From a virus (lineage: Duplodnaviria > Caudoviricetes), in IMG/VR virus record IMGVR_UViG_3300037419_002279, positions 9,183 to 73,182 of that record: 64,000 bases of DNA; one strand, given 5' to 3'. The notes beneath the pieces were generated by a model. It saw only the letters and a list, made by a program, of their open reading frames with translations, was not told the DNA's origin and made no database searches. The first letter of the stretch is position 1. Every line of letters starts with the position of its first letter. The position numbers and the translations under genes were made by a program. Shown one piece after another: positions 666 through 38,403 of this stretch.

Positions 666-2860
666 TGACCCTGCAATATCTGTCCAGCGATGCCACCACA
701 GGCATCGACGCGACCGGCACGCTGCCGTCCGGCTTCACCGCGCTGTCGGGCACCTGGACCGTCAACAATTCGATTTCGATCAACGGCCACGCGAACTGCA
801 TTTCCTATACCGGCGGCTCGGTCAATCAGGTCGCGCTGCTGGAAGGCCCCGGCACGCTGTCCGGCGTCGATATGTCCTTCTGCCTGCCGAACAATGCGGG
901 CCTGACGGGCAACGCAAACCTCGAACCCTTCGTGTGCGCCAACGCCGCCAACAACAACGGCTATCTGCTGATCATGCTGTTCAGCAGCACGACGGCGGGG
1001 CAACTCTGGCTGTTCCGGCGCGATCCCGGCGGCGACCATCTGATCACCAATCCCAGCGTCACATTGGCCTCGGGATCGACCAACTCCTACACGCTGCGCT
1101 TGCAGGTCCAGGGGGGGTCGGTCCGCGGCAAGGTCTGGTCGACGAATTCTGCGGAACCTGACTGGCAGATCAACACTACCGATTCGACCTATTCGTCGGG
1201 CTATTGCGGTTTCCAATCGAATAACGGCGGCGTGGCAAATGTCACGGCGGCAGACGTCGTTATCAATACCGTCGCCGCCAATCAGGTGATGGTCGATCAG
1301 CCACAGTCGCCGACGGTCAGCACGACATTCACCGCGTCGGGCATTTACTACGGCACCGCCCCGACGGCGATGGACTATGCATTCGACGCAACGACGCCCG
1401 GTTCCTGGGCGGCGATGACTGGCTTTTCGACAACGACGTCGGGCGTGCCCATCAGCGGCGGCGGGCACTGGCAGGGGACCGTCACAGCCCCATCCGCGAC
1501 CGGCCTGCACACCCTTATCGTTCGCGACCACAACACGACCACGGTGCAAGGCGCGTCGGCGTCCTTCACGGCCGTTTCGGGGTCATCGACGATCAGCGTC
1601 ACGACGCCCGGCACGCTGACCCAGAGCGCATCCTACACGCTGGCCGGAACATATACCGGCACGGCACCGACCGGCGTCCAGTACGCCTACGACGGTGGAT
1701 CGTCCTACACGGTCCTGACCGGCTTCAGCGCTTCAGGCGGGACATGGTCGGGCACGGCAACCGCGCCGGCCAGCACGGGATCACACACGGTCACCGTTCA
1801 AGAGACGAACAACACGTCCATCACCGCCACGTCGTCCAGTTTCACCGTCAGCGCGGCGACGACGACGATCCCCGCCGACGGCGGGGCCTTCCACTACAGC
1901 CCCTATAACTGGAACGTCGGCAGCGGCAGGGCGAAGACGATCTGCTGCGGCGCGTACTTCTCGACCGTCTTCACCGGCGGCTCGTGCACGGCAACCTTCG
2001 ACATGACCGGCCTTTCCACGCCGTACCCGCAAATCTGGTATCGTATCGATGGCACCAATTGGTTAAGCGCCTCGATCGCGGCCACGGTAGCGCTGACGAT
2101 GCCGTCGACGACCACCGGCTGGGCCAAGCACCATCTGGAAGTCATCGTCAAAAGCACCTCGGAATGGATGGATCGCTGGAACACTCAGGCGGCCTCGGTG
2201 GCGTTCACCGGCCTGACCCTGGCGAGCGGTCAGACTGCGGCTTCGCCCACAGCATCGCCGCAGCGACGGATTGTGCTGTTCGGTGACAGCATCACCGAGG
2301 GCTATCTGTCGGTGTCGAACACGACCGATACCGCCGGCAGCGATGTCACGGTGACCTGGGGCTACCAACTGCGACATTTGCTGGGCGCCGATGTCAGCGT
2401 CATCGCCTGCGGCGGGCAGGGCATCACGCAAGGCGGACAGGGCAACTGGCCTTCGCTGATCAACGCATGGAATTTCCACTGGTCCGGACAGGCGCGAACC
2501 TACACGCCGACGCCGGACCTGATCGTCATCAATCAGGGGCAGAATGACGGCGCGACGGGATCGGGCTTTCAGTCGCAATACGCCTCGACGTTGAATGCGA
2601 TCCTGGCCGGCATCCCGAACTGCCCGGTCGTCATTCTGATCCCGTTCTCGCAATCCCACGCCTCCGACATCCCCGCGACGGTCACGGCGGTGGGCAACAG
2701 TCGCGTGCACTACATCACGACATCAGGCTTCTTCGATAGCTCGCTGTCGGTTGACGGTGTGCATCCGCTCGGCGTCGCCGCGCTTGATTCGCTGGCCCCG
2801 CAGGTCGCGGAAAAGCTGCGGCCGTTTCTCAACACCAGCAAGCGCTGGTCGTATTCTTGA
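665..2860 (+). CDS. Putative receptor-binding protein B1: lectin-like N-terminus, Ig-like repeat, C-terminal SGNH/GDSL hydrolase
   Basis: ATG overlaps upstream TAA; SGNH blocks [20 protein letters not shown]; Thr/Ser/Gly-rich beta repeats. Confidence 0.8.
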
Positions 2861-2874
2861 CCAAAGGGGCAGAC

Positions 2875-4005
2875 ATGACATCTATCCGCTCGTACGGTCT
2901 GGCTGCCCTGTTGCTGGGGCTGCTGCCGGCGTCCGCCTTCGCGCAATGCGCCGGGCAGCACCGCATCCCGTTCGACTGCGCCACCGTCTCCTCTATCGCG
3001 CCGGGCGATGTCTTCCTCGGCGGCACCGTCAGCAACACCGCGACGGTGAAGTTTACCGCCGCGCAGGTGGCGGGCCTGGCGCCAGTTCAAACGGTGTTCG
3101 GCCGCACCGGGGCGGTGGTGCTGCAAGGATCGGACCTGCCGACCTCGGGCGTCACGCCCGGCAGCTATACGAACGCCAACATCACGATCGACGGGACCGG
3201 CCGCATAACCGCCGCGACGAATGGGTCCTCGGGCGTCCCCGGCTCGGGGACCGTGACCAGCGTCGGACTGACGATGCCATCGGGCTTCACCGTCAGCAAC
3301 AGCCCGATTGTCGATAGCGGCACGCTGGCGGTTTCGCTCTCGTCTCAGACCGCCAAATTCGTCCTCGCCGCACCGAACGGATCGGCAGGCACCCCGACCT
3401 GGCGGCAGCTTGTGGCAACCGATGTGTCCGGGCTGGCAACTTCGGCGACGACCGACACAACGAACGCCGCCAACATCAGCAGCGGCAATCTTGCCGCCGC
3501 GCGGATGTCAACGAACCTGTCGGCTGCGATCGACACAGCGATCGGATCGACGCGCGGGTCGATCCTGTTCCGCGGCCTGTCGGGCTGGTCGCTTCTCGCC
3601 CCGGGCACCGCAGGCCTCGTGCTGCAAACCAATGGTGCCGGTGCTGATCCGACCTGGGTCGCGCAGACCGGCGGCACGGGCGGGCCGGCGACGGTGCCGG
3701 TGACGACGGTGGCAACCTCGGGCAGCGCGCAGACGGTGTCATTCCCGGCGAACGGTAGCGCGGCTTACGACATCACGTTGACCGCGAATTGCACGATCAC
3801 CGTCAGCGGCGGCACCGCCGGGCAGATGCAGCAGATCACGGTGTTTCTGCGCCAGGATGCTACCGCAGGACGGACGCCGACCTTCCCCGCAGGTGTCCGC
3901 TGGTCCGGCGGCGCACCGCCCGCGTTCAACACGACTGCCGGGCGCATCGACGTTGTGACGCTGACCACGCCCGATGCGGGCGCGACGGTCTTCGGGAGCT
4001 ACTAA
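2875..4005 (+). CDS. Tail fibre/adaptor protein A2 (paralog of A1)
   Basis: Gly/Thr-rich fibre-like sequence; ends ATVFGSY like A1. Confidence 0.75.
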
Positions 4006-4007
4006 CC

Positions 4008-6773
4008 ATGTCGCTTGTATATCTCTCGAACGACGCGACGACGGGCATCGACGCGACCAACGCGCTGCCGTCCGGCTTTACCCAGACCGGCGGCTCCTGG
4101 TCCGTCAATTCCAGCACGACGTGGCTTGGCCACTCGAAGCAACTGTCTGCCAATAGCGCCGCGAACAATCAGCTCGCCGTTCTGACCGGCGCCGGCACCC
4201 GTGCCGATCAAGAACTGTTCTTCACGATCCCCTACAACGCGGCGACGACCGGCAGCGAGCTATTGGAGCCGCTCGTGCGCATGGACGCCGCGGGCACCTC
4301 GACCGCCTATATGTTCATCCTGCTGTTCGATGCCGGAAGCCCCGCCCCATCCGCAACAAGCGCGCATTTGTGGGTGTTCAAGCGTTCCGGCGGCGACAGC
4401 CTGGTTAACAATTCGTCGGTCATCAATTTCCCGGCCAACTCGACCGCGATCTCCTGTCGTGTTCAGGCTGTCGGGACCACGATCCGCGGCAAGTTCTGGG
4501 CGACGCAGACCGCCGAGCCGACCGCGTGGACCTATTCTTTTACCGACGCCGCCATCGCCAGCGGCTACTGCGGCTTTAACACCAACATCCAGGCCGGCGG
4601 CTTCTCGCCCGGCGCTGCCGATATCATCGTCAATGCCATCACCACCAATCAGGTGATGGTCAATCAGCCGGCGGCGGTCACCACCTCGACCAGCTTCACC
4701 GTGACGGGCGTTTACGAGGGCACCGCACCGACGGCGATGGATTACGCCTTCGACGCGACGGCGCCCGGAACATGGACAGCGTTCACCAGCTTCAGCGCAT
4801 CGGGCGGCACATGGACGGGGACGGCGACCTCGCCGTCCGCGGCGGGCCTGCACACGCTGATCGTGCGCGACCACAACACCACGACGGTGCAGAACGCATC
4901 GCCGGCCTTCACCGTCAATGCGCCGGCGTCGATCACCGTCACCACGCCGAGCACGCTGACGCAGAGCGCGTCCTACTCGCTGTCGGGCAGCTACACCGGG
5001 ACCGCGCCGACCAATGTGCAGTACGCCTATGACGGCGGGTCCAGCTACACCGCCCTGACCGGGTTCTCAGCATCGGGTGGCGCCTGGTCAGGCACCGCGA
5101 CCGCGCCCTCGGCCACCGGATCGCACACGGTTACGGTGCAGGAGACGAACAACACCGCGATCACCGCGACGTCCGGAAGCTTTACGGTGACGGTGTCGTC
5201 AACGATTCAGGTCACCACGCCGGGGACGTTGGCGCAGAGCGCGTCCTATACGCTTTCCGGGACCTATGGGGGGACCGCACCGACCGGGGTGCAGTACGCC
5301 TATGACGGCGGGTCGAGCTACACAGTCCTGACCGGGTTCACCGCATCAGGCGGCACTTGGTCGGGCACAGGAACGGCGCCTTCGACCGCGGGGTCCCACA
5401 CTGTCACCGTTCAGGAAACGAATAACACCGCCATCACCTCGACGTCGGGTAGTTTCACCGTATCGGCGTCGAATGCGATCACCGTCAACACGCCGGGCAC
5501 GGTGACTGCCGGATCGTCCTTCTCGATCAGCGGCAGCTATACCGGCACAGCGCCGACCGGGCTCAACTACAGCTTCAACGGCGGCACGAGCTACAGCACC
5601 GCGTCGGGCTTTTCGGCATCCGGCGGCTCATGGTCGGCGATCGCCACCGCGCCCGGTAGCGCCGGCTCCTATCAGGTGACGGTGCAGGAAGCCAATGCGA
5701 CCGGTGTCACAGCGACCTCGGGCAATTTCACCGTTGCCACCGGCACGATCACCATCGATCCGTCGAACGCGGCGATCATTTACTCGCCGTACACGTGGAA
5801 CGTGACCGCCGGTGCGGCGCAGACCATCAATCCGGGGGCGTATTTCCGCGTCCTGTTCAGCGGCAATACGGTCGGCCTGACGTTCAACGTGGCGAACTTG
5901 TCTTCGCCGCAGTCGCAGATCTGGGCGCGCGTCGATTTCGGCCCCTGGACGCAATACACCGTGGCGTCCTCGATCTCGCTGACGATCCCGGCTGCCACGC
6001 TTGGGAACACCGATTTCCCCTATCACTTGCTCGAAGTCATGGTGAAGTCGACCTCGGAAACGCTGAACCGCTGGAACAGCCCCTACAACACCGCTGTCAT
6101 CCTGACCGGCATCGTGCTGGCCTCGGGGGCCACGGTGCTGCAAGGCTTGCGGGCGCCGCGCAATGTGCTGATCTACGGCGATTCAATCACCGAGGGCGTG
6201 CGCACGGTCGGCGAATCAGCGACCAATGATACCGACCGCAACGATGCCATGACGTCCTACGCCTATCATCTTGGCCGCGTGCTCTTAGGCGCTGAAGTCG
6301 GCGTTGTCGGCTTCGGCGCGCAGGGGATCAACAACAGCGGGTCGGGCAACGTTCCGGGCATGGTCAGCGCCTGGAATCAGCTCTATTCGGGGGCCTCGCG
6401 CAGCTTCACGCCGCAACCTGACATGATCATCATCAATCAAGGTGGTAACGACGGAAACAACGACACCCATGTGAGCATGACGACGATCCTGAACGGGCTG
6501 CTCGCGGCCTGCCCGAACGCCGCGATCGTCGTGACGACGCCGATGCGATCGTCCGGCCAGCCGGCGTTTCTGCAACAGGCGATCGCCGCGTGCAACAATC
6601 CCCAACGCATCCGCTATCTCGATACGATCACCAATCCTTTCTACAATCCGGCGTTGGGCTCGGACACGTTGAACTTCCATCCGAACGGGCCGAACAGCGT
6701 CGCCTTCGTCGCACCGAAATTCGCCGCCGCGGTGAAGGACTGGTTCCCCTCGCGGGGTGCCACGCACTACTAG
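4008..6773 (+). CDS. Putative receptor-binding protein B2: lectin-like N-terminus, expanded Ig-like repeats, SGNH hydrolase
   Basis: IYGDSITEG, NQGGND, DTLNFHP blocks; paralog of B1. Confidence 0.8.
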   Translation: MSLVYLSNDATTGIDATNALPSGFTQTGGSWSVNSSTTWLGHSKQLSANSAANNQLAVLTGAGTRADQELFFTIPYNAATTGSELLEPLVRMDAAGTSTAYMFILLFDAGSPAPSATSAHLWVFKRSGGDSLVNNSSVINFPANSTAISCRVQAVGTTIRGKFWATQTAEPTAWTYSFTDAAIASGYCGFNTNIQAGGFSPGAADIIVNAITTNQVMVNQPAAVTTSTSFTVTGVYEGTAPTAMDYAFDATAPGTWTAFTSFSASGGTWTGTATSPSAAGLHTLIVRDHNTTTVQNASPAFTVNAPASITVTTPSTLTQSASYSLSGSYTGTAPTNVQYAYDGGSSYTALTGFSASGGAWSGTATAPSATGSHTVTVQETNNTAITATSGSFTVTVSSTIQVTTPGTLAQSASYTLSGTYGGTAPTGVQYAYDGGSSYTVLTGFTASGGTWSGTGTAPSTAGSHTVTVQETNNTAITSTSGSFTVSASNAITVNTPGTVTAGSSFSISGSYTGTAPTGLNYSFNGGTSYSTASGFSASGGSWSAIATAPGSAGSYQVTVQEANATGVTATSGNFTVATGTITIDPSNAAIIYSPYTWNVTAGAAQTINPGAYFRVLFSGNTVGLTFNVANLSSPQSQIWARVDFGPWTQYTVASSISLTIPAATLGNTDFPYHLLEVMVKSTSETLNRWNSPYNTAVILTGIVLASGATVLQGLRAPRNVLIYGDSITEGVRTVGESATNDTDRNDAMTSYAYHLGRVLLGAEVGVVGFGAQGINNSGSGNVPGMVSAWNQLYSGASRSFTPQPDMIIINQGGNDGNNDTHVSMTTILNGLLAACPNAAIVVTTPMRSSGQPAFLQQAIAACNNPQRIRYLDTITNPFYNPALGSDTLNFHPNGPNSVAFVAPKFAAAVKDWFPSRGATHY
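4920..5745 (+). repeat. Three tandem ~90-codon coding repeats (ITVTTP...YAYDGGSSY...[10 protein letters not shown])
   Basis: Visible repeats in B2; one copy in B1 near 1585-1855. Confidence 0.85.
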
Positions 6774-6786
6774 CGAAGGACACATC

Positions 6787-7404
6787 ATGCCGCACCCCGT
6801 GACCCCCTGGGCGCACGACAGGCCCGTGCGCAATAACAATCCCGGCGACCTGCGCACGCGCCACACGCCGCCGCCCTGGCCCGGCCAGGTGGACGTTGAC
6901 GATGACCCCGGCGGGCCGTTCGCGATCTTCGCCACCCCGGCCGACGGCTGGGCCGCCCTGGCGCTCTGGTGCCTCGATGCGCGGTACCTGCGCGGGCTGC
7001 ACACCGCCCCGCAGATGATCAACGTCTTCGCCCCGCCCGCCGACAACAACCCGACATCCGCCTATGCGCAGTTCGTCAGCGACCGCGTCGGCGCCGGCGA
7101 CCTGGACCTAACCGATCCGGACCGGCTTGCCGCGCTGTGCCGCGCGATCGCCTGCTTCGAAGACGGGCGCGCATCATGGAATGAACTCGAAGTGCAGTCC
7201 GGCCTGCTGCTGGCCTCTGCCCGCTGGCCGGAATGGAAGGCGGCGCGGCTGGGCGATCAGCCGCCGATGCAGGCGGTGCCGGTGCACGAGCAGACCGCAC
7301 CGCTGCCGGCGGATCCGGCGATCGAGATTGCCGGGCTGTCGGACGCCGACCGGCTGAACCAGGCCGAACTCGATCGGCTGCATCGCGAACAGGGAACGGC
7401 GTGA
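6787..7404 (+). CDS. Putative lysozyme-fold endolysin / virion muralytic protein
   Basis: RNNNPGDLR motif, WAP-like FAPPADNNPTSAY; located after fibres and before a membrane protein. Confidence 0.6.
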   Translation: MPHPVTPWAHDRPVRNNNPGDLRTRHTPPPWPGQVDVDDDPGGPFAIFATPADGWAALALWCLDARYLRGLHTAPQMINVFAPPADNNPTSAYAQFVSDRVGAGDLDLTDPDRLAALCRAIACFEDGRASWNELEVQSGLLLASARWPEWKAARLGDQPPMQAVPVHEQTAPLPADPAIEIAGLSDADRLNQAELDRLHREQGTA

Positions 7405-9948: not shown

Positions 9949-10239
9949 ATGAGCGACCGGAAACCCCTATTCCCGGCCCGGCCGGGTGACGACGTCGTGA
10001 CCGCGCCGCCACCGCCGCCACCGCCGTCAGCCCCGTCCCCGCCGCCGGCCCCGACGATCGATACCGAGATGGCCGGGCGGATCGAGCGCGCCGTCATCGA
10101 CGTCTTCATGCGGCGGTTCAACCCGGAACGCCTGCCCTATGCCCAAGCCCGGATCCTGGTGACGCTCGAACTCGAAATCGTCAGCGTGCTTGTCCGGGAA
10201 CTGGCGACGACGCCGGCGTCACGGGCGGCCCCCCCCTGA
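9949..10239 (+). CDS. Pro-rich hypothetical protein
   Basis: GGAG RBS, 96 aa ORF. Confidence 0.55.
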   Translation: MSDRKPLFPARPGDDVVTAPPPPPPPSAPSPPPAPTIDTEMAGRIERAVIDVFMRRFNPERLPYAQARILVTLELEIVSVLVRELATTPASRAAPP

Positions 10240-10329
10240 GGCGCGTCAGCAGGCGGCGCTTATGCAAATTATGAAAGTTAATTCTAATCGAACGTTTTGC
10301 CCGTACGGCAAAACTGCATAGGAGCCGCT

Positions 10330-10563
10330 ATGAGCGACAAGCCGGTAACCCCAACGACCGCCTGCCCCATCGCCACGGCGGTTGCTGCCGACGTTCTCGC
10401 GCGCGCAGAGCGCGGCCTTAAGAAGTATGGCGTCCCGTTGTCGCGCACGGACCTGTCGCGTGCAGAATGGTTGCAACATCTCTACGAAGAGTTGCTCGAT
10501 GCCGCTGCTTATACGCGGACCTTGATCGAGTTGGAAAAAGCCAATGTCACCAACAAAGCCTGA
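10330..10563 (+). CDS. Small phage protein, MazG-like/NTP pyrophosphohydrolase-like helical family
   Basis: GLKKYGVPLSRTDLSRAEWLQHLYEELLDAAAY motif; GGAG RBS. Confidence 0.55.
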   Translation: MSDKPVTPTTACPIATAVAADVLARAERGLKKYGVPLSRTDLSRAEWLQHLYEELLDAAAYTRTLIELEKANVTNKA

Positions 10564-10780
10564 ATCAATGGCGACGGTCACTGTTCCGTCCGGAAACGGT
10601 CGATTGAGCCGCGCCGTAAAGCCGCATAGGAGGCGATAATCGCAGCCTTGCAATCCCGTTCCGCCGGTTCATCCATCGCATGCCCCCTCTGATGTATTTG
10701 TTGGCCGATGCAGGCTATTGGATACCCTTGTGTAAAGTTGTTATCTGTGCTTCTGTTCCTCTGGAACCGGAGTATGCGAC

Positions 10781-10891
10781 ATGAAGGCGTTGCTCTTGGC
10801 TATCGCGCTACTTGCCGGCATTGGCGTCGGCGCGACGATCTACATCGGAATACAACCGGCGCATGCGGAATGCGGCGGCCCGAACTGCTGA
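10781..10891 (+). CDS. Secreted-peptide precursor 1 (36 aa; predicted mature ECGGPNC)
   Basis: MKALLLAIALLAGIGVGATIYIGIQPAHA-ECGGPNC; translated by hand, absent from the ORF track. Confidence 0.85.
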   Translation: MKALLLAIALLAGIGVGATIYIGIQPAHAECGGPNC

Positions 10892-10903
10892 TAGGCCCAT
10901 GCC

Positions 10904-11017
10904 ATGAAAACCTGTCTCCTTCTGATCATACTCCTGGCAGGCTTCGGCGGCATTGGTGCGGCTACCTACATCTCTGCACAACCGGCGCATGCAGAGTGCA
11001 GCGGCCCGAACTGCTGA
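10904..11017 (+). CDS. Secreted-peptide precursor 2 (37 aa; predicted mature ECSGPNC)
   Basis: MKTCLLLIILLAGFGGIGAATYISAQPAHA-ECSGPNC. Confidence 0.85.
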   Translation: MKTCLLLIILLAGFGGIGAATYISAQPAHAECSGPNC

Positions 11018-11030
11018 TAGGCGTATTCAC

Positions 11031-11144
11031 ATGAAGATCCTGCTTTTGCTGGGCGTCCTAGTCGTTAGCTTCACCGGCGCCGGCGTGGCTGCTTACCTCG
11101 CCGCGCAGCCGGCGTATGCAGACTGCACCGGCCCGAACTGCTGA
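11031..11144 (+). CDS. Secreted-peptide precursor 3 (37 aa; predicted mature DCTGPNC)
   Basis: MKILLLLGVLVVSFTGAGVAAYLAAQPAYA-DCTGPNC. Confidence 0.85.
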   Translation: MKILLLLGVLVVSFTGAGVAAYLAAQPAYADCTGPNC

Positions 11145-11154
11145 TAGACCTGCC

Positions 11155-11271
11155 ATGAAAACCTGTCTCCTTGTGCTCATGCTCCTGGCAGGCTTCGGCG
11201 GTGGTCTGGCTGTCTATCTTGCCGTCCAACCGGCGCACGCAGAGGGCGGCTGCAGTGGCTCGAACTGCTGA
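11155..11271 (+). CDS. Secreted-peptide precursor 4 (38 aa; predicted mature EGGCSGSNC)
   Basis: MKTCLLVLMLLAGFGGGLAVYLAVQPAHA-EGGCSGSNC. Confidence 0.85.
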   Translation: MKTCLLVLMLLAGFGGGLAVYLAVQPAHAEGGCSGSNC

Positions 11272-11283
11272 TAGGCCCATGCC

Positions 11284-11400
11284 ATGAAAGCCTATCTCCT
11301 CGTGATCCTGCTCCTGGGCGCCCTCGGCGGCATCGGTGTGGCTGCCTACATCGCCGCGCAGCCGGCGCAGGCGCAGGGATGCACTGGTCCGAACTGCTGA
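11284..11400 (+). CDS. Secreted-peptide precursor 5 (38 aa; predicted mature QGCTGPNC)
   Basis: MKAYLLVILLLGALGGIGVAAYIAAQPAQA-QGCTGPNC. Confidence 0.85.
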   Translation: MKAYLLVILLLGALGGIGVAAYIAAQPAQAQGCTGPNC

Positions 11401-11447
11401 ACGTCTCTGAAACGTTTGGGTCCGCCGGTAAAGCTGAACAAGGCTCG

Positions 11448-11630
11448 GTGCTCCCGAAGACTGATGACCGTCTATGGCAGATCCAGGCACCGCACTTCAC
11501 GGCGGGAGCCGAGTTCATCAACGGTGTCTGCTCGCGTGCCGCGCCGATCATCCGCTGGATGGTCGGCAAGACCGATGTGGATCTGCAAGCGCACTGTCGG
11601 CGCAAGGGCTGGACGATAACGGCCTGCTAA
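11448..11630 (+). CDS. Small conserved-looking phage protein (start uncertain)
   Basis: LWQIQAPHFTAG...AAPIIRWMVGK...CRRKGW. Confidence 0.6.
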   Translation: MLPKTDDRLWQIQAPHFTAGAEFINGVCSRAAPIIRWMVGKTDVDLQAHCRRKGWTITAC

Positions 11631-11773
11631 TTCCGTCCGAAAGCGCCGCTTGTCGGACGCACGCCTGACAAACCGCATTAGCAGGCGTGCGACTTGGCAT
11701 TGCGGCGCCCGGTTCTCGATTCAGCATGCCGAGCGCATATCATCGGTCAGAACCGGAAGGCGCAGCTACCATC

Positions 11774-12103
11774 ATGGATTTCCGCCTGTCGTTCGAAGGC
11801 CTCGGTGAGGTGTCAGTCAGTGAACGCCGCAAGCCGGCCGATCCTGACGCCCATTCCTACGAATCCGACGATCTGGTTGATCGAATTGACGACGTCAAAC
11901 TGGATGTCTACTCGCTCGAAAAGACGCCACGCAAAGGCGCCTGCGTGCTGCTGGATATGAATGCCTACCACATCGAAAACGACGACACCGGGCGGGCATT
12001 CCATACCAGCGTCGGACTTCACCTGACGCGCGCCGAGATCACCACGCTGCGCGACTTCCTCGACTTCATTATCGAACACGCCGATGACGCTGACCCCGAA
12101 TAG
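11774..12103 (+). CDS. Acidic hypothetical protein
   Basis: MDFRLSFEGLG..., 109 aa. Confidence 0.6.
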   Translation: MDFRLSFEGLGEVSVSERRKPADPDAHSYESDDLVDRIDDVKLDVYSLEKTPRKGACVLLDMNAYHIENDDTGRAFHTSVGLHLTRAEITTLRDFLDFIIEHADDADPE

Positions 12104-12180
12104 CGCTTTCACATGTCCGACGCCGCCTGAAATCCCCCGACCGACGAATCTAAGTCGCCCCGTTCGGTTCGGACCGCACG

Positions 12181-12214
12181 AAAAAACCGGCCGGGAATTA
12201 CGGGTCCCGACCGG
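12181..12214 (-). terminator. Rho-independent terminator
   Basis: CCGGTCGGGA/TCCCGGCCGG stem followed by T6 on the minus strand. Confidence 0.55.
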
Positions 12215-12385
12215 CGCCTTGCTTTCGCTCGCAGCCTTCGCTTTTTCGGCCCGGAACTAGGTTTCGGGATGCCGCTCTTATGGCGGCGCGGCGTTATCGG
12301 CCGCGGGGGTGAGATGGTCAAGGCGTGCACTACCCTGCTAGCGTATCCACGGGGATCACCACGACGTCAGACCAGCGAGAAGCCG

Positions 12386-18324: not shown

Positions 18325-18642
18325 CTAGGCCGCGTTTGCCTGGGCGAATGCCTTGCTCACCCGCGCATGCACCGCCCGCCCGGCATCCGTCGGCGCGACC
18401 AGGATCATCCGCGCATCGCCGGAAAATTCCGACAACTTCAGCAGTCCCCGGGCCTGCAAGGCCCGGGTTAGCCGAGACACGCGCGATCTGGACAGGGCGA
18501 GGCCTTGGGCGATTTCGGCCTGCGAGACGGGTTCGGCCATCTCGCAGCAGAAGGCGATGACCTGCAAATCGCGCGTCGTCAGCCCATCGCCGACGCCTTC
18601 GCGGTCGAGCAGCGAGCGAAAGACGGACAACAGGTCCGACAT
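18325..18642 (-). CDS. MarR-like winged-helix regulator
   Basis: SQAEIAQGLALSRSRVSRLTRALQARGLL...DAR. Confidence 0.8.
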   Translation of the reverse strand: MSDLLSVFRSLLDREGVGDGLTTRDLQVIAFCCEMAEPVSQAEIAQGLALSRSRVSRLTRALQARGLLKLSEFSGDARMILVAPTDAGRAVHARVSKAFAQANAA

Positions 18643-20273
18643 TAGCCTTGTCCCTCGAAGCGCTGCGTGGCCGCGGCAAAGGCGGCGTCGGCGCGATCGA
18701 ACAGCGCCGGGGTATCGCGCCGCAGCCGCAGCATGGTGCGGCGGACATCCGCATCGGACACGATCGCTTCGAAGCCCGCGCGATCGGCCGCGGCATCGAC
18801 CCGGGCGATGATGTCATCGACCCAGGTTCCGTCGGCCGTCGGTTCGGCCGGGCGACCGCGGATGACATCGGCGATCCAGGCGGGCGGATCAGCAATTCCT
18901 TTGGCTTGGGCGGCATCAAGGACGACACGGGCAGCCGTCAGCCGGTGCGAGGGCGCGCAGGTTTCGATGCGCGGGCGCTGCGCGGCGGCCCAGGCAGCGA
19001 AGTGTTCGGCTGCGACATCCGCCGCCGCCGCCTTGAGTGCCCTGACGTAGCCGGGCCATGACATCTTTCCCCGATCGACCGGTGGCTCGACGATTGCGAA
19101 GTCTGGTGAGACATTTTGTCGAACATCCCCCCGTTCATCGATACTGGCAAGTACCGCCGCCGCCTCGCTGTCCCTTTGAGCATCGGCAATAGCATCAGCA
19201 TTATGTTCGGCCAGCGCCGCGCGGCCCTGCGCATCAGCGGGATCAAACTCGATCACGTACGCCTGAGCCCATTCGCGCGCATCGGCATATTCGTCGCCGA
19301 TGATGTCACCGGCCGCGTCGATCAGCGGATGCGGGAATGTTGCGGCCGCCGTCGGGGCCGGCGGCTGCACCGGGGGCTGCGCCGGGGGCTGCGTCTGGGC
19401 CGGGGGCTGCGCCGGTGCAACGGCGCCCATGCGCGCCCGCGCCCGATCGAACGCGACCTGGATCTCATAAGCCGCCTCGTCTGGTGCCGTCCGCCGCATT
19501 TCGCGCACCCGCGGCAGGTCTTCGAGCGCCTTCAGTGCCCGGGCCGACGGTGCGGACGTCGTCGCCTTGGTCAGCAGCTTCATGGCCTTCCAGGCGTTTT
19601 CCTCGGCCGCAAGCTGCTGGTCGATGCCGGTCAGCCAGGCCTGTCCCCAATCTTCCTCGGGCGGCCCGTCCGGCGGCGGCGGGGCGGCTTCCCAGCGGGC
19701 ATGGGCAATCCCCATGTTGCCGTCATCATCCTCGTCCTGGGCGACGATATTGAACGCCGCGCAGAACAGGTTGCGCTTCAGGTAGGACGTCGTGCTGATC
19801 ATCCCGTGCAGCGCGGTCTTATTGATCTTGCCGCCCGATCCGGTGTTGTCCGGCGGACCCGACAGCGGGCCGATTTCTTCGCGATGCCCGTCCTGATGGC
19901 TGACGACGCAGACCAGCGATATCCAACCCGGTTCCGGCGGCGGCACCGGCTGGAAGGACACACTGAAGCCGTGCTTGCTGATGATCGGCATGGCAACCGC
20001 GCAGATCGTCTCGTATCGCGCGTAACGGGATCGGGTCTGGGTGTTCGCCGCATCGCGGCGGATCGGCGGGATTTCCCGCTGCGCGGCCGCCATTGCCCGG
20101 CCGTAGGCAAGTTTCGCTTCATCGGCGAGGATTTCCCGCTGCATCCGCAGCAGGGCTTCGAATTTGCCGATATCGACCTGCGGGTCGCGTGCGGCGACGG
20201 ACAGGAAATTCAGCAACGACGGCAATGTCGCCATCGCGCTGTGCGCCGGAACCGGCGGGGTAATTTCGTTCAT
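18642..20273 (-). CDS. erf: ERF-family ssDNA annealing protein with long C-terminal extension
   Basis: AMAAAQREIPPIRRDAAN..RSRYARYETI...KHGFS...TSYLKRN. Confidence 0.8.
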   Translation of the reverse strand: MNEITPPVPAHSAMATLPSLLNFLSVAARDPQVDIGKFEALLRMQREILADEAKLAYGRAMAAAQREIPPIRRDAANTQTRSRYARYETICAVAMPIISKHGFSVSFQPVPPPEPGWISLVCVVSHQDGHREEIGPLSGPPDNTGSGGKINKTALHGMISTTSYLKRNLFCAAFNIVAQDEDDDGNMGIAHARWEAAPPPPDGPPEEDWGQAWLTGIDQQLAAEENAWKAMKLLTKATTSAPSARALKALEDLPRVREMRRTAPDEAAYEIQVAFDRARARMGAVAPAQPPAQTQPPAQPPVQPPAPTAAATFPHPLIDAAGDIIGDEYADAREWAQAYVIEFDPADAQGRAALAEHNADAIADAQRDSEAAAVLASIDERGDVRQNVSPDFAIVEPPVDRGKMSWPGYVRALKAAAADVAAEHFAAWAAAQRPRIETCAPSHRLTAARVVLDAAQAKGIADPPAWIADVIRGRPAEPTADGTWVDDIIARVDAAADRAGFEAIVSDADVRRTMLRLRRDTPALFDRADAAFAAATQRFEGQG

Positions 20274-21049
20274 CAGCCGCGGACCCCCATGACGACGTCG
20301 CATTCCCATCGGATCCCCGGGATCACCGCGAGCGGCCGCCCGGTCGCATCGCGCTCGCGCGCCGCCTCGCCGATTGCCGCGGGATTGGCCATCAGGAATT
20401 CACGCGGGATCAGGCTTTCGTCTTCGATCACCCAGCGCCAGGTGCGCCGGGCCGAGACGGCCGAGCCATAATCACCGCGGACCCGCGTCATGTCGGCAAC
20501 CGAGGCCTGCGCGGCCGCCGTCGCCTGTGCCGCCTTCGTCGCCGCTGTTTCGGCGAGGTCCATAGCGGTGCCGGCCCGCTTGCCGGCGGCGATCTTTTCC
20601 GCCGCCTGCGCGGCCAGCCGATCGGCCTCGGCCTGCGCCGCGGCCGCGGCCGCGCGCCGTTCGGCTTCGGCCTTGTCCAGCTTGCGGCGGGCATAGTCAT
20701 TCATCCGCGCCTGCACCGGGCGGATCGCATCCGCGAGCGGTTCGACGAAAACCTTGAACCAGCTATCGACGGTGCGGCCGCCGGCGAGGAACGGCTCCTT
20801 CGCCCGCTTCCGACGTTCCTCGACCGCGGTGTTCAGCTTCTTCGCGAGCGCGATATTTTCGCTGACCTCGCCGAGCACCTCGTCATCGTCGATCTGCGGA
20901 TAGGCGGCGGCCGATGCAGCCAGGGCGGCGATCAGATCGTCGCGCCGGGCGCGCATGCGTTCGGTATCGAATTCCAGATATTCCCGGATCTGCGCATCCG
21001 ATAGCGGCGCCGGCGGCTTAGGCCGGTTGGGGATTGTCATATCGTTCAT
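20273..21049 (-). CDS. Coiled-coil phage protein typically found beside recombinases
   Basis: VEERRKRAKEPFLAGGRTVD and RRTWRWVIEDESLIPREFL. Confidence 0.6.
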   Translation of the reverse strand: MNDMTIPNRPKPPAPLSDAQIREYLEFDTERMRARRDDLIAALAASAAAYPQIDDDEVLGEVSENIALAKKLNTAVEERRKRAKEPFLAGGRTVDSWFKVFVEPLADAIRPVQARMNDYARRKLDKAEAERRAAAAAAQAEADRLAAQAAEKIAAGKRAGTAMDLAETAATKAAQATAAAQASVADMTRVRGDYGSAVSARRTWRWVIEDESLIPREFLMANPAAIGEAARERDATGRPLAVIPGIRWECDVVMGVRG

Positions 21050-21529: not shown

Positions 21530-22186
21530 TCAGCGATCCGCTAGGACGGCCGGCAAGTGCTTGCGCACATACTCGATCGGCGAGGCCGCGATGACTGACT
21601 GATCCGCCAGTAAACCGCCGTCATAGCCGACGAGTGTGCAGAGTCCGTTCGGCTGTACTGACAGCACGCGCAGCAGCACCGTGCCGTCGGCGATTTCGGC
21701 GACGCATTCGAGGCCGTGCAGGTCGCGCAGGCGGAAGCGGTCCGGCCTGACGCTGCGATGGAACACAATATCCCCGGCGCGGTAGGCGGGGCGTAAGCTG
21801 TCATCGGTGACCGCGGTCGCGACCAGATCGCCGGCGTCCTCGGGGGAAATGTTGAGTGCAACAGTATCAGGTGCTGTCAAGATAGCTGCGACTTTTCCGC
21901 CCTGGCCGATGCGTGAGACGATCGGGATTTGCGCATACGCGGTGACTTCGGCGCCATAAAGCAGGGTACCGGGTTTGAGATCAAGCATGCGCTCGTAATC
22001 GCGTGCTGCTTCCCACTGAAATTCGCGGGTGCCGTTTTCATGGTGTTGGTAGGTGGCGATTTTGATGCCGGCCGTTTGCGCAAAGGCGGCGGCGGATTTG
22101 TAGCCGGCGGCGATTCGGGCTTCGCGTAGCCGTTCGGCCGCGGTCATTTCGTCAGTCGCTAATTTGAGCATTATTTTCCGTGCCAC
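21530..22186 (-). CDS. CI-like repressor: XRE HTH + S24-like domain
   Basis: ERLREARIAAGYKSAAAFA...YQHHENGTR; V.DDSLRPAY.AGDIVF; divergent from the Cro-like gene. Confidence 0.8.
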   Translation of the reverse strand: MARKIMLKLATDEMTAAERLREARIAAGYKSAAAFAQTAGIKIATYQHHENGTREFQWEAARDYERMLDLKPGTLLYGAEVTAYAQIPIVSRIGQGGKVAAILTAPDTVALNISPEDAGDLVATAVTDDSLRPAYRAGDIVFHRSVRPDRFRLRDLHGLECVAEIADGTVLLRVLSVQPNGLCTLVGYDGGLLADQSVIAASPIEYVRKHLPAVLADR

Positions 22187-22196
22187 GTTCGGTGTC

Positions 22197-22215
22197 TCTG
22201 TGCAGGCCGCACAGA
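22197..22215. promoter_or_regulatory. Putative repressor operator TCTGTGC-N5-GCACAGA
   Basis: Perfect inverted repeat between the CI-like and Cro-like genes, next to TTGACA at 22220. Confidence 0.6.
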
Positions 22216-22256
22216 TCGATTGACATAGGCTGTGCGCTGCGTATTGATTTCTCGGC

Positions 22257-22625
22257 ATGGGAGCCCGAGAGGATAAATGGCCGGCCGACGCAAGCTACCG
22301 ACCGATCCTGGCGCGCTGGCCGTCGGTCTCAGCACTCGCGCACGACCTCGGGCTGCCGATCGACACCGTCTATAGCTGGCGCCGCCGCGATAGTTTGCCG
22401 CAAGGCAAATGGGGTGCGATCTGGGAAGCGGCGCGCGTGCGCGGCTACCGCGACGTAACCTATCGCCGTCTGCGTGCCATCGCCGCTGAACGTGCCCGTA
22501 TTTCAGCCGACCTCTCCGACAATGACGGCGTGTTACCACAGCCCGAGTGTGTTCAAAGTGCACAGATTCGAGGGGTCCGGCAACCGAAAACCATAACGCG
22601 ATCGGAAGCAGAGCCATGCCCCTAG
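22257..22625 (+). CDS. Cro-like HTH protein
   Basis: WPSVSALAHDLGLPIDTVYSWRRRDSLP. Confidence 0.7.
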   Translation: MGAREDKWPADASYRPILARWPSVSALAHDLGLPIDTVYSWRRRDSLPQGKWGAIWEAARVRGYRDVTYRRLRAIAAERARISADLSDNDGVLPQPECVQSAQIRGVRQPKTITRSEAEPCP

Positions 22626-38366: not shown

Positions 38367-38403
38367 CTGTGCGTTACGCACAGTTCATGTAAACGATCTG
38401 TGC
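38367..38403. promoter_or_regulatory. Second CTGTGC-N5-GCACAG operator plus extra half-site
   Basis: CTGTGCGTTACGCACAG at 38367-38383, ATCTGTGC at 38396. Confidence 0.6.

Follow-up and report, generated by a model that had tools for sequence, protein, structure and literature searches.

The window, a 64,000-nucleotide stretch of phage DNA, carries a tandem array of five micro-genes that, to judge from their sequences, belong to a rare and unannotated family of genes combining an export signal with a tiny tail. In the reading that best fits the data, to which we assign a probability of about 0.55, each product would be exported by the Sec pathway, cleaved by signal peptidase I and released to the periplasm as a small disulfide-loop peptide, the array forming a phage-borne polycistronic accessory cassette. 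To our knowledge, peptides this short that are released directly by removal of a signal peptide have mostly been described as Firmicutes pheromones. The libraries and papers that we searched contain no description of such a conserved family from Gram-negative bacteria, with its fixed C-x4-C frame, its expansion to as many as nine genes per array and its acquisition by a phage. The micro-genes are missed by normal gene calling and by every family library and thus add to the hidden small proteome. Since the predicted products of 5 to 10 residues can be synthesised, direct tests are feasible and the family offers an easy test case.

Layout of the array

The IMG/VR virus record has 73,182 bp and a completeness of 91%; the window covers its bases 9183-73182. 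A sequence-only reading had described five intact ORFs of 36 to 38 aa, spaced by 10 to 13 nt, of which the first four end in TGATAG, and we could confirm this description from the sequence. The array and the spacer in front of it are made up as follows.

10564-10780, plus strand: untranslated spacer before the array, 217 nt
10781-10891, plus strand: micro-gene 1, 36 aa; predicted 29-aa signal peptide ending P-A-H-A; 7-residue C-x4-C tail
10904-11017, plus strand: micro-gene 2, 37 aa; 7-residue C-x4-C tail
11031-11144, plus strand: micro-gene 3, 37 aa; 7-residue C-x4-C tail; true start ATG 11031, not TTG 10953
11155-11271, plus strand: micro-gene 4, 38 aa; 9-residue C-x4-C tail; true start ATG 11155, not the start at 11116
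11284-11400, plus strand: micro-gene 5, 38 aa; 8-residue C-x4-C tail with Gln first; single TGA stop

The spacers between the ORFs measure 12, 13, 10 and 12 nt, giving units of 123 to 129 bp. Because the five ORFs are spread over three different reading frames, they do not make up one read-through product. Alignment of the five showed a common MK start, a Gly-rich hydrophobic stretch, a Y-x3-Q-P-A-x-A segment and a C-x-G-[PS]-N-C end. The mechanical ORF list gave ORFs 3 and 4 spurious in-frame starts upstream of the true ones, in agreement with the earlier remark that this list misses true starts.

A GGAG sequence is present at 10769-10772, 8 nt 5' of the first ATG of the array. Copies 2 to 5 have at best the AGG within the TGATAGG junction as a candidate ribosome site and are probably translated via coupling. 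A consensus scan around the array revealed neither a sigma-70 consensus promoter nor a usable terminator, and the fold downstream of the array was unremarkable (z-score -1.5). We also noted that two of the junctions (10889-10906 and 11269-11286) contain an out-of-frame ATG 5 bases upstream of the true start. In both, this ATG opens a two-codon mini-ORF, ATG CCA TGA, the stop of which overlaps the start of the next micro-gene.

Genomic context in the phage

The genes that place the array within the phage genome are listed here.

560-2860: neck-passage/GDSL gene, upstream of the array
2857-4005: tail fibre, upstream of the array
3789-6773: GDSL protein of 994 aa, upstream of the array
6757-7404: lysin-like protein, upstream of the array
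10050-12300: low-GC stretch, GC 0.53-0.62 versus about 0.67 on both sides, holding an 88-aa gene, the array and two unassigned ORFs
18642-20309, minus strand: ERF recombinase, downstream of the array
21530-22258, minus strand: HTH repressor-like gene with an HTH_31 domain, downstream of the array

The phage origin that had been proposed for this DNA was borne out by the tail-fibre, neck-passage and lysin-like genes upstream and by the HTH repressor and ERF recombinase genes downstream. The array itself follows the tail-fibre and lysin-like genes and precedes those for recombination and the repressor, in a low-GC stretch that resembles an acquired accessory (moron-type) segment. In this stretch, the ORF at 10297-10563 matched only PHROGs of unknown function and the other neighbours matched no family; none of the ORFs tested within 5 kb of the array had an assigned function. 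The repressor-like gene, whose product (21530-22258) gave a very weak match to Peptidase_S24 (13.9 bits), points to a possible temperate lifestyle. In the 73-kb record, a tyrosine integrase was looked for and not found; a tRNA search found none.

Both large virion-type proteins (560-2860 and 3789-6773) end in a GDSL/SGNH esterase domain and have the tail-fibre-like gene between them. These two proteins are probably receptor-modifying tail spikes.

Evidence that the five ORFs are genes

The tandem units share a mean column identity of 77% in a DNA alignment of the five copies, and a profile made from these copies found only these five places in the 73-kb genome. Chance was excluded, since the units are tandem duplicates and the profile also retrieves independent relatives elsewhere. 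In a codon alignment of the five copies, the numbers of variable columns at codon positions 1, 2 and 3 were 19, 12 and 25 of 35, respectively. Indels within the ORFs were of 3 or 6 nt; those in the spacers were of 1 to 2 nt and shifted the frame between copies without breaking any ORF. The dN/dS comparison across copies that the sequence-only reading had put forward as a check gave a pooled pN/pS of 0.50 among the five window copies, indicating purifying selection, with values of 0.59 for the leader, 0.32 around the P-A-x-A site and 0.34 for the tail. The duplicates are old, as pairwise dS ranged from 0.31 to 2.34. GC3 was 0.65-0.82 in the micro-genes versus 0.81-0.85 in large phage genes, and the long ORFs on the opposite strand lacked comparable coding support. 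Judged by these sequence patterns, the five ORFs are genuine genes under purifying selection.

Relatives and their distribution

A search of 1.84 billion representative proteins with the five-copy profile yielded 7 outside relatives with the same layout, and a wider profile gave 65 matches in a word-indexed profile search of a 5.8-billion cluster set. Starting from one carrier, an alphaproteobacterial MAG, we then ran a six-frame profile search over 401 genomes of its family. Matches were obtained in 28 of the 401 genomes, about 10 of which had true full-length members. About 86 distinct relatives are known in all, from metagenomes and from about 10 genomes of one alphaproteobacterial family. 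Searches at order level and at class level (400 sampled genomes each) brought no further true member.

A scan of genome contigs gave one true locus (L006), and a metagenome scan gave another (L008); a further match from the genome contigs (L007) was rejected as a chance match. Among viral contigs, a protein-pattern scan and two DNA patterns revealed no other phage with the micro-gene family. The single DNA-pattern match there (L015) lies inside a tape-measure-like ORF and was likewise attributed to chance. The array region found nothing in a phage collection by blastn, and a consensus-like member found nothing among phages and plasmids by tblastn, a search in which the query may have been hidden by low-complexity masking. 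When the 401 genomes were searched at the DNA level for related prophages, the only matches were of 36 to 123 bp, none of them within the array.

In Pfam and NCBIfam, no model reached its cut-off for any of the 11 members tested. The protein Atlas offered only unnamed clusters of 38 aa with scores below 0.9 and no named cluster, and a literature search for the family returned nothing relevant. The micro-gene family is thus undescribed in the libraries and papers searched.

One member is labelled Roseiarcus sp. by NCBI, and the PqqC protein of another carrier has its nearest named relatives, at 77-83% identity, in Xanthobacter and Prosthecomicrobium. On these grounds, the host family, known from soil alphaproteobacterial genomes, can be placed no more closely than in an uncultured Rhizobiales-like lineage, one member of which is the most likely host of the phage.

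The micro-genes are commonly found in arrays, which range in size from two to nine genes. The window has five, as does genome G677 (locus L045), and G528 (locus L047) has nine. Moreover, four proteins are encoded on one 4.5-kb contig, and several other contigs carry two or three copies. Some database proteins consist of two units fused by a frameshift.

L045:9726-13841, minus strand: five-copy array with pqq genes, in a 7.1-Mb genome
L047:4268-5555, minus strand: nine-copy array without Cys; tails rich in Asp, Gly and Ser and ending in Lys or Arg; same leader
L006:5662-8993 and L008:1-1466: prophage portal locus; portal with a C-terminal colicin E5 ribonuclease domain (PF12106, E 3e-7)

Anatomy of the pre-peptides

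Across the 86 distinct members, the leader is 29 to 32 residues long. It starts with MK, MRK or MQK and continues with 17 to 22 hydrophobic residues, often with a central Gly-Gly. In many relatives, charged residues stand between the hydrophobic core and P-A-x-A, as is typical of a c-region. Numbering from the predicted cleavage site, position -1 is Ala in 81 of the 86 members (Gly in 3, Ser in 2) and position -3 is Ala in 79 (Val in 3, Ile in 2, Gly and Thr in 1 each). Position -4 is Pro in 81 of 86, and position -2 is variable and bulky, with His in 49 members and also Leu, Val, Tyr or Gln. At position +1, we found Asp in 39, Cys in 23 and Glu in 8 of the 86, and never Pro.

The tails have 4 to 10 residues with a mode of 7; only one is as short as 4, the other 85 falling between 5 and 10. 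They are composed of 25% Gly, 23% Cys, 13% Asn, 11% Asp and 11% Ser, and hydrophobic residues are almost absent. Exactly two Cys are present in 69 of the 86 tails; among these 69, the spacing is C-x4-C in 51 and the tail ends on Cys in 62. Immediately before the last Cys stands Asn in 36 cases and Gly in 20. The tails are very diverse, with 82 different ones among the 86 members.

The C-x-G-[PS]-N-C motif of the window is thus a local form of a family-wide C-x4-C-end frame. The earlier claim of a conserved C...C tail holds for the two-Cys frame and the composition and fails for the tail motif itself, which is not conserved across the 86 members. Of the 86 members, 12 have no Cys at all, among them the nine-copy array of L047, so a disulfide loop is not what defines the family as a whole.

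Two further classes of product were considered and set aside. Lipoproteins processed by signal peptidase II do not fit the window copies, which have Glu, Asp or Gln at position +1 and no lipobox Cys. Family-wide, the Cys found at +1 in 23 of 86 members is accompanied by an atypical His at -2 and Pro at -4, and array paralogues alternate it with Asp at +1. An array of type I toxins (hok, ldr, ibs) was rejected as well, given units of 123-129 bp with 10-13-nt spacers in one polycistron and no match to an RNA family; toxin genes of this type come as autonomous units that span hundreds of bases, and each has a promoter of its own plus a gene for an antisense RNA.

Export and cleavage, or a membrane anchor

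In the best-fitting reading, we infer that the products are expressed from the phage or prophage, exported, cleaved and oxidised. With its basic N-terminus and hydrophobic core, the pre-peptide would insert into the inner membrane with the N-terminus inside. By the positive-inside rule, a basic N-terminus predicts such an N-in insertion, and the tail would thus be periplasmic whether cleaved or not. Signal peptidase I would cut after the nearly invariant P-A-x-A, so that the window copies would release peptides of 7 to 9 residues into the periplasm, one of them beginning with Gln. The two Cys, mostly in a C-x4-C arrangement that includes the C-terminal residue, would be oxidised to a small six-residue disulfide ring, and a ring of this kind requires a tight turn, which Gly, Pro, Asn and Ser would favour.

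Signal peptidase I follows the -3/-1 rule, with small residues at both positions. By sequence criteria, the features of a signal peptide were all present: the n-region is positive, the h-region is hydrophobic, positions -1 and -3 carry small residues and a helix-breaking Pro precedes them. Cleavage is the probable outcome, since the small residues at -1 and -3, the free and bulky position -2, the Pro at -4 and the acidic residue at +1 are hard to explain for an anchor. On the other side, a hydrophobic stretch of 17 to 22 residues and a distance of 29 to 32 residues to the cut are long for a cleaved signal and would fit an anchor equally well.

The closest competitor, which the sequence-only reading had given as its alternative and which we consider somewhat unlikely, is that the products stay uncleaved as single-pass micro-proteins, each an N-in chain in the inner membrane with a periplasmic tip of 8 to 14 residues. 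Their helix, through small-x3-small motifs, would bind host membrane proteins or self-associate, and the Cys pair would act as a redox-sensitive or cross-linking cap in the manner of MgrB. Such an arrangement would account for a hydrophobic stretch that has the length of a membrane span, for leaders that are strongly conserved across genomes and for the fact that the relatives without Cys keep the leader. It also agrees with the pN/pS values in bacterial arrays, where leader and tail gave 0.38 and 0.83 in the nine-copy array and 0.38 and 0.41 in the five-copy array; leaders there are at least as constrained as tails, and the tail is the less constrained part in one of them. The membrane segment could thus be the functional part in these arrays. 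However, an anchor gives no reason for near-invariant Ala at -1 and -3, Pro at -4 and a variable, bulky -2, and no Pfam family of small membrane proteins matched. MgrB-type regulators are similar to the micro-proteins in size, in N-in topology and in having two periplasmic Cys. They differ from them in having no conserved signal peptidase site, a longer periplasmic part that is conserved in sequence and a single gene copy.

Returning to export with cleavage, the design of a signal peptide with an A-x-A site is near-invariant in the 86 relatives, and this favours cleavage and a two-Cys peptide in the periplasm. The nine-copy relative array contains no Cys.

Neighbourhoods and possible function

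The genes next to the micro-genes differ from locus to locus. Two loci have portal genes (L006 and L008), one has pqq genes (L045) and one has a MobA relaxase gene (L047); elsewhere the micro-genes are found beside ABC permeases or an aldo-keto reductase, or after katG or bacA, and one locus is near sigF/nrsF and a low-GC gene for a secreted protein. When all ORFs from 12 loci were compared with one another by BLASTP, no protein was shared across contexts. Comparing neighbours across loci had been suggested earlier as a route to a receptor, and the 12 loci revealed no conserved neighbour. At these 12 loci, the micro-genes are orphans with no linked receptor, transporter or modifying enzyme. 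Most members are found in bacterial chromosomes or on a mobilisable element; the family is not phage-specific.

Because the tails vary freely while composition and Cys spacing are kept, because several tails are encoded per operon and because no partner gene accompanies them, we suggest with low confidence that the role of the peptides may be one of envelope chemistry (thiol/disulfide exchange or metal chelation) rather than of receptor-specific signals. Taken further, the array might encode templated chelators or redox agents of heptapeptide size or, alternatively, a diversified set of periplasmic signals with a receptor elsewhere; such specific roles seem clearly unlikely on present grounds. 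For chelation, signal peptidase would leave a free amino terminus near the Cys at position 1 or 2 with the second Cys four residues on, a geometry that recalls the N-terminal nickel hook of NiSOD, and the Asp/Gly-rich tails of the relatives without Cys would suit hard cations. If this were true, the periplasm would receive mini-metallophores or thiol buffers of ribosomal origin, secreted by a phage and by its hosts with no need for a modifying enzyme.

That the ORFs might be RiPP precursors, with a leader recognised by a modifying enzyme encoded elsewhere, appears very improbable. RiPP precursors classically occur as multi-copy arrays in which the leader is conserved and the short cores vary, and the L045 array, which begins 355 nt downstream of pqqBCDE, has a radical-SAM/SPASM enzyme and a PqqD-type protein as neighbours. 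However, these pqqBCDE genes form an ordinary PQQ operon, and the micro-gene peptides lack the pair of Glu and Tyr that PqqA carries. Moreover, no modifying enzyme accompanies the phage array or any of the remaining ten related loci, and the RiPP-precursor models of NCBIfam do not match.

Very improbable, in our view, is an arbitrium-like or other peptide communication system of the phage, or one for superinfection exclusion. In its design, a signal peptide followed by a very short peptide, the product does resemble AimP and Phr precursors, and a relative from a metagenome reaches 21.6 bits on AimP_fam. The phage has a repressor-type gene and, 31 nt upstream of the array, a copy of an 8-mer that is enriched near the repressor. 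That score, however, falls below the cut-off of 35 and concerns the leader only; AimP_fam was absent from single scans of all five window copies (limits E 0.1 and 10), and the AimP model (NCBIfam NF033802) found nothing in the phage at E<=10. On the receptor side, the 73-kb genome contains no TPR_12 match and the flanking ORFs have no AimR-type combination of HTH and TPR. Most members occur in non-phage chromosomal contexts with no shared neighbour, and five tails per operon together with free tail variation are a misfit for a pair of one peptide and one receptor. Phage signalling or superinfection exclusion, the function that the sequence-only reading had proposed, is thus unsupported, lacking an AimP match, a TPR receptor and a conserved neighbour; what stands of that reading is its structural part.

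The chance that the region is a non-coding tandem repeat with accidental ORFs is negligible: high-GC DNA does give many spurious ORFs, and long ORFs are also present on the opposite strand, but the codon-position pattern, the in-frame indels and dN/dS favour coding, the ORF architecture including the stop position is kept in the 86 relatives at less than 50% identity, and no Rfam family matched above chance.

Comparison with known systems

The AimP and Phr precursors of Bacillus and its phages share with the micro-genes a length of about 40 aa, a Sec signal followed by a very short C-terminal peptide and the capacity to be carried by phages. In contrast, the micro-genes are found in a Gram-negative host, have tails with two Cys, form arrays of 2 to 9 copies with differing tails and are mostly chromosomal. 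Heat-stable enterotoxin STa, like other small Gram-negative peptides of this type, is exported by Sec, loses its signal and acquires its disulfides in the periplasm through DsbA, to give a small product framed by Cys. This biogenesis is similar to the one proposed here, with no Pfam match between the two. STa differs in having a pro-region and three disulfides in 18 to 19 residues, compared to no pro-region and one possible disulfide in 5 to 10 residues for the micro-gene products. Conotoxins are eukaryotic venom peptides with a conserved signal, a hypervariable mature part, a fixed Cys frame and tandem duplication. They are unrelated and provide an analogy only; tail pN/pS of the micro-genes was 0.38-0.83 and did not demonstrate positive selection.

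Other observations on the loci

At L006, the colicin-E5 portal gene is followed by a small ORF without assignment, which may encode immunity, then by one micro-peptide gene and finally by a duplicated fragment of the portal. The portal layout recurs in the independent metagenome contig L008 and resembles the orphan cassettes of polymorphic toxin loci. The contig with the L047 array is 11 kb long and has a MobA/MobL relaxase gene at a distance of 2 kb from the array. The L045 array follows pqqB, pqqC, pqqD and pqqE on the same strand.

Finally, the 8-mer GCACAGAT is present in 8 copies in the window versus 1.7 expected.

10743-10750, minus strand: GCACAGAT copy 31 nt upstream of the array
21470, 22209 and 22560: GCACAGAT copies around the repressor-like gene
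26795, 31674, 31694 and 38396: further GCACAGAT copies

One copy is half of a perfect palindrome, CTGTGC-N5-GCACAG, at 22198-22214. A second perfect palindrome, at 38367-38383, is found just upstream of the copy at 38396. The 8-mer may be an operator half-site.
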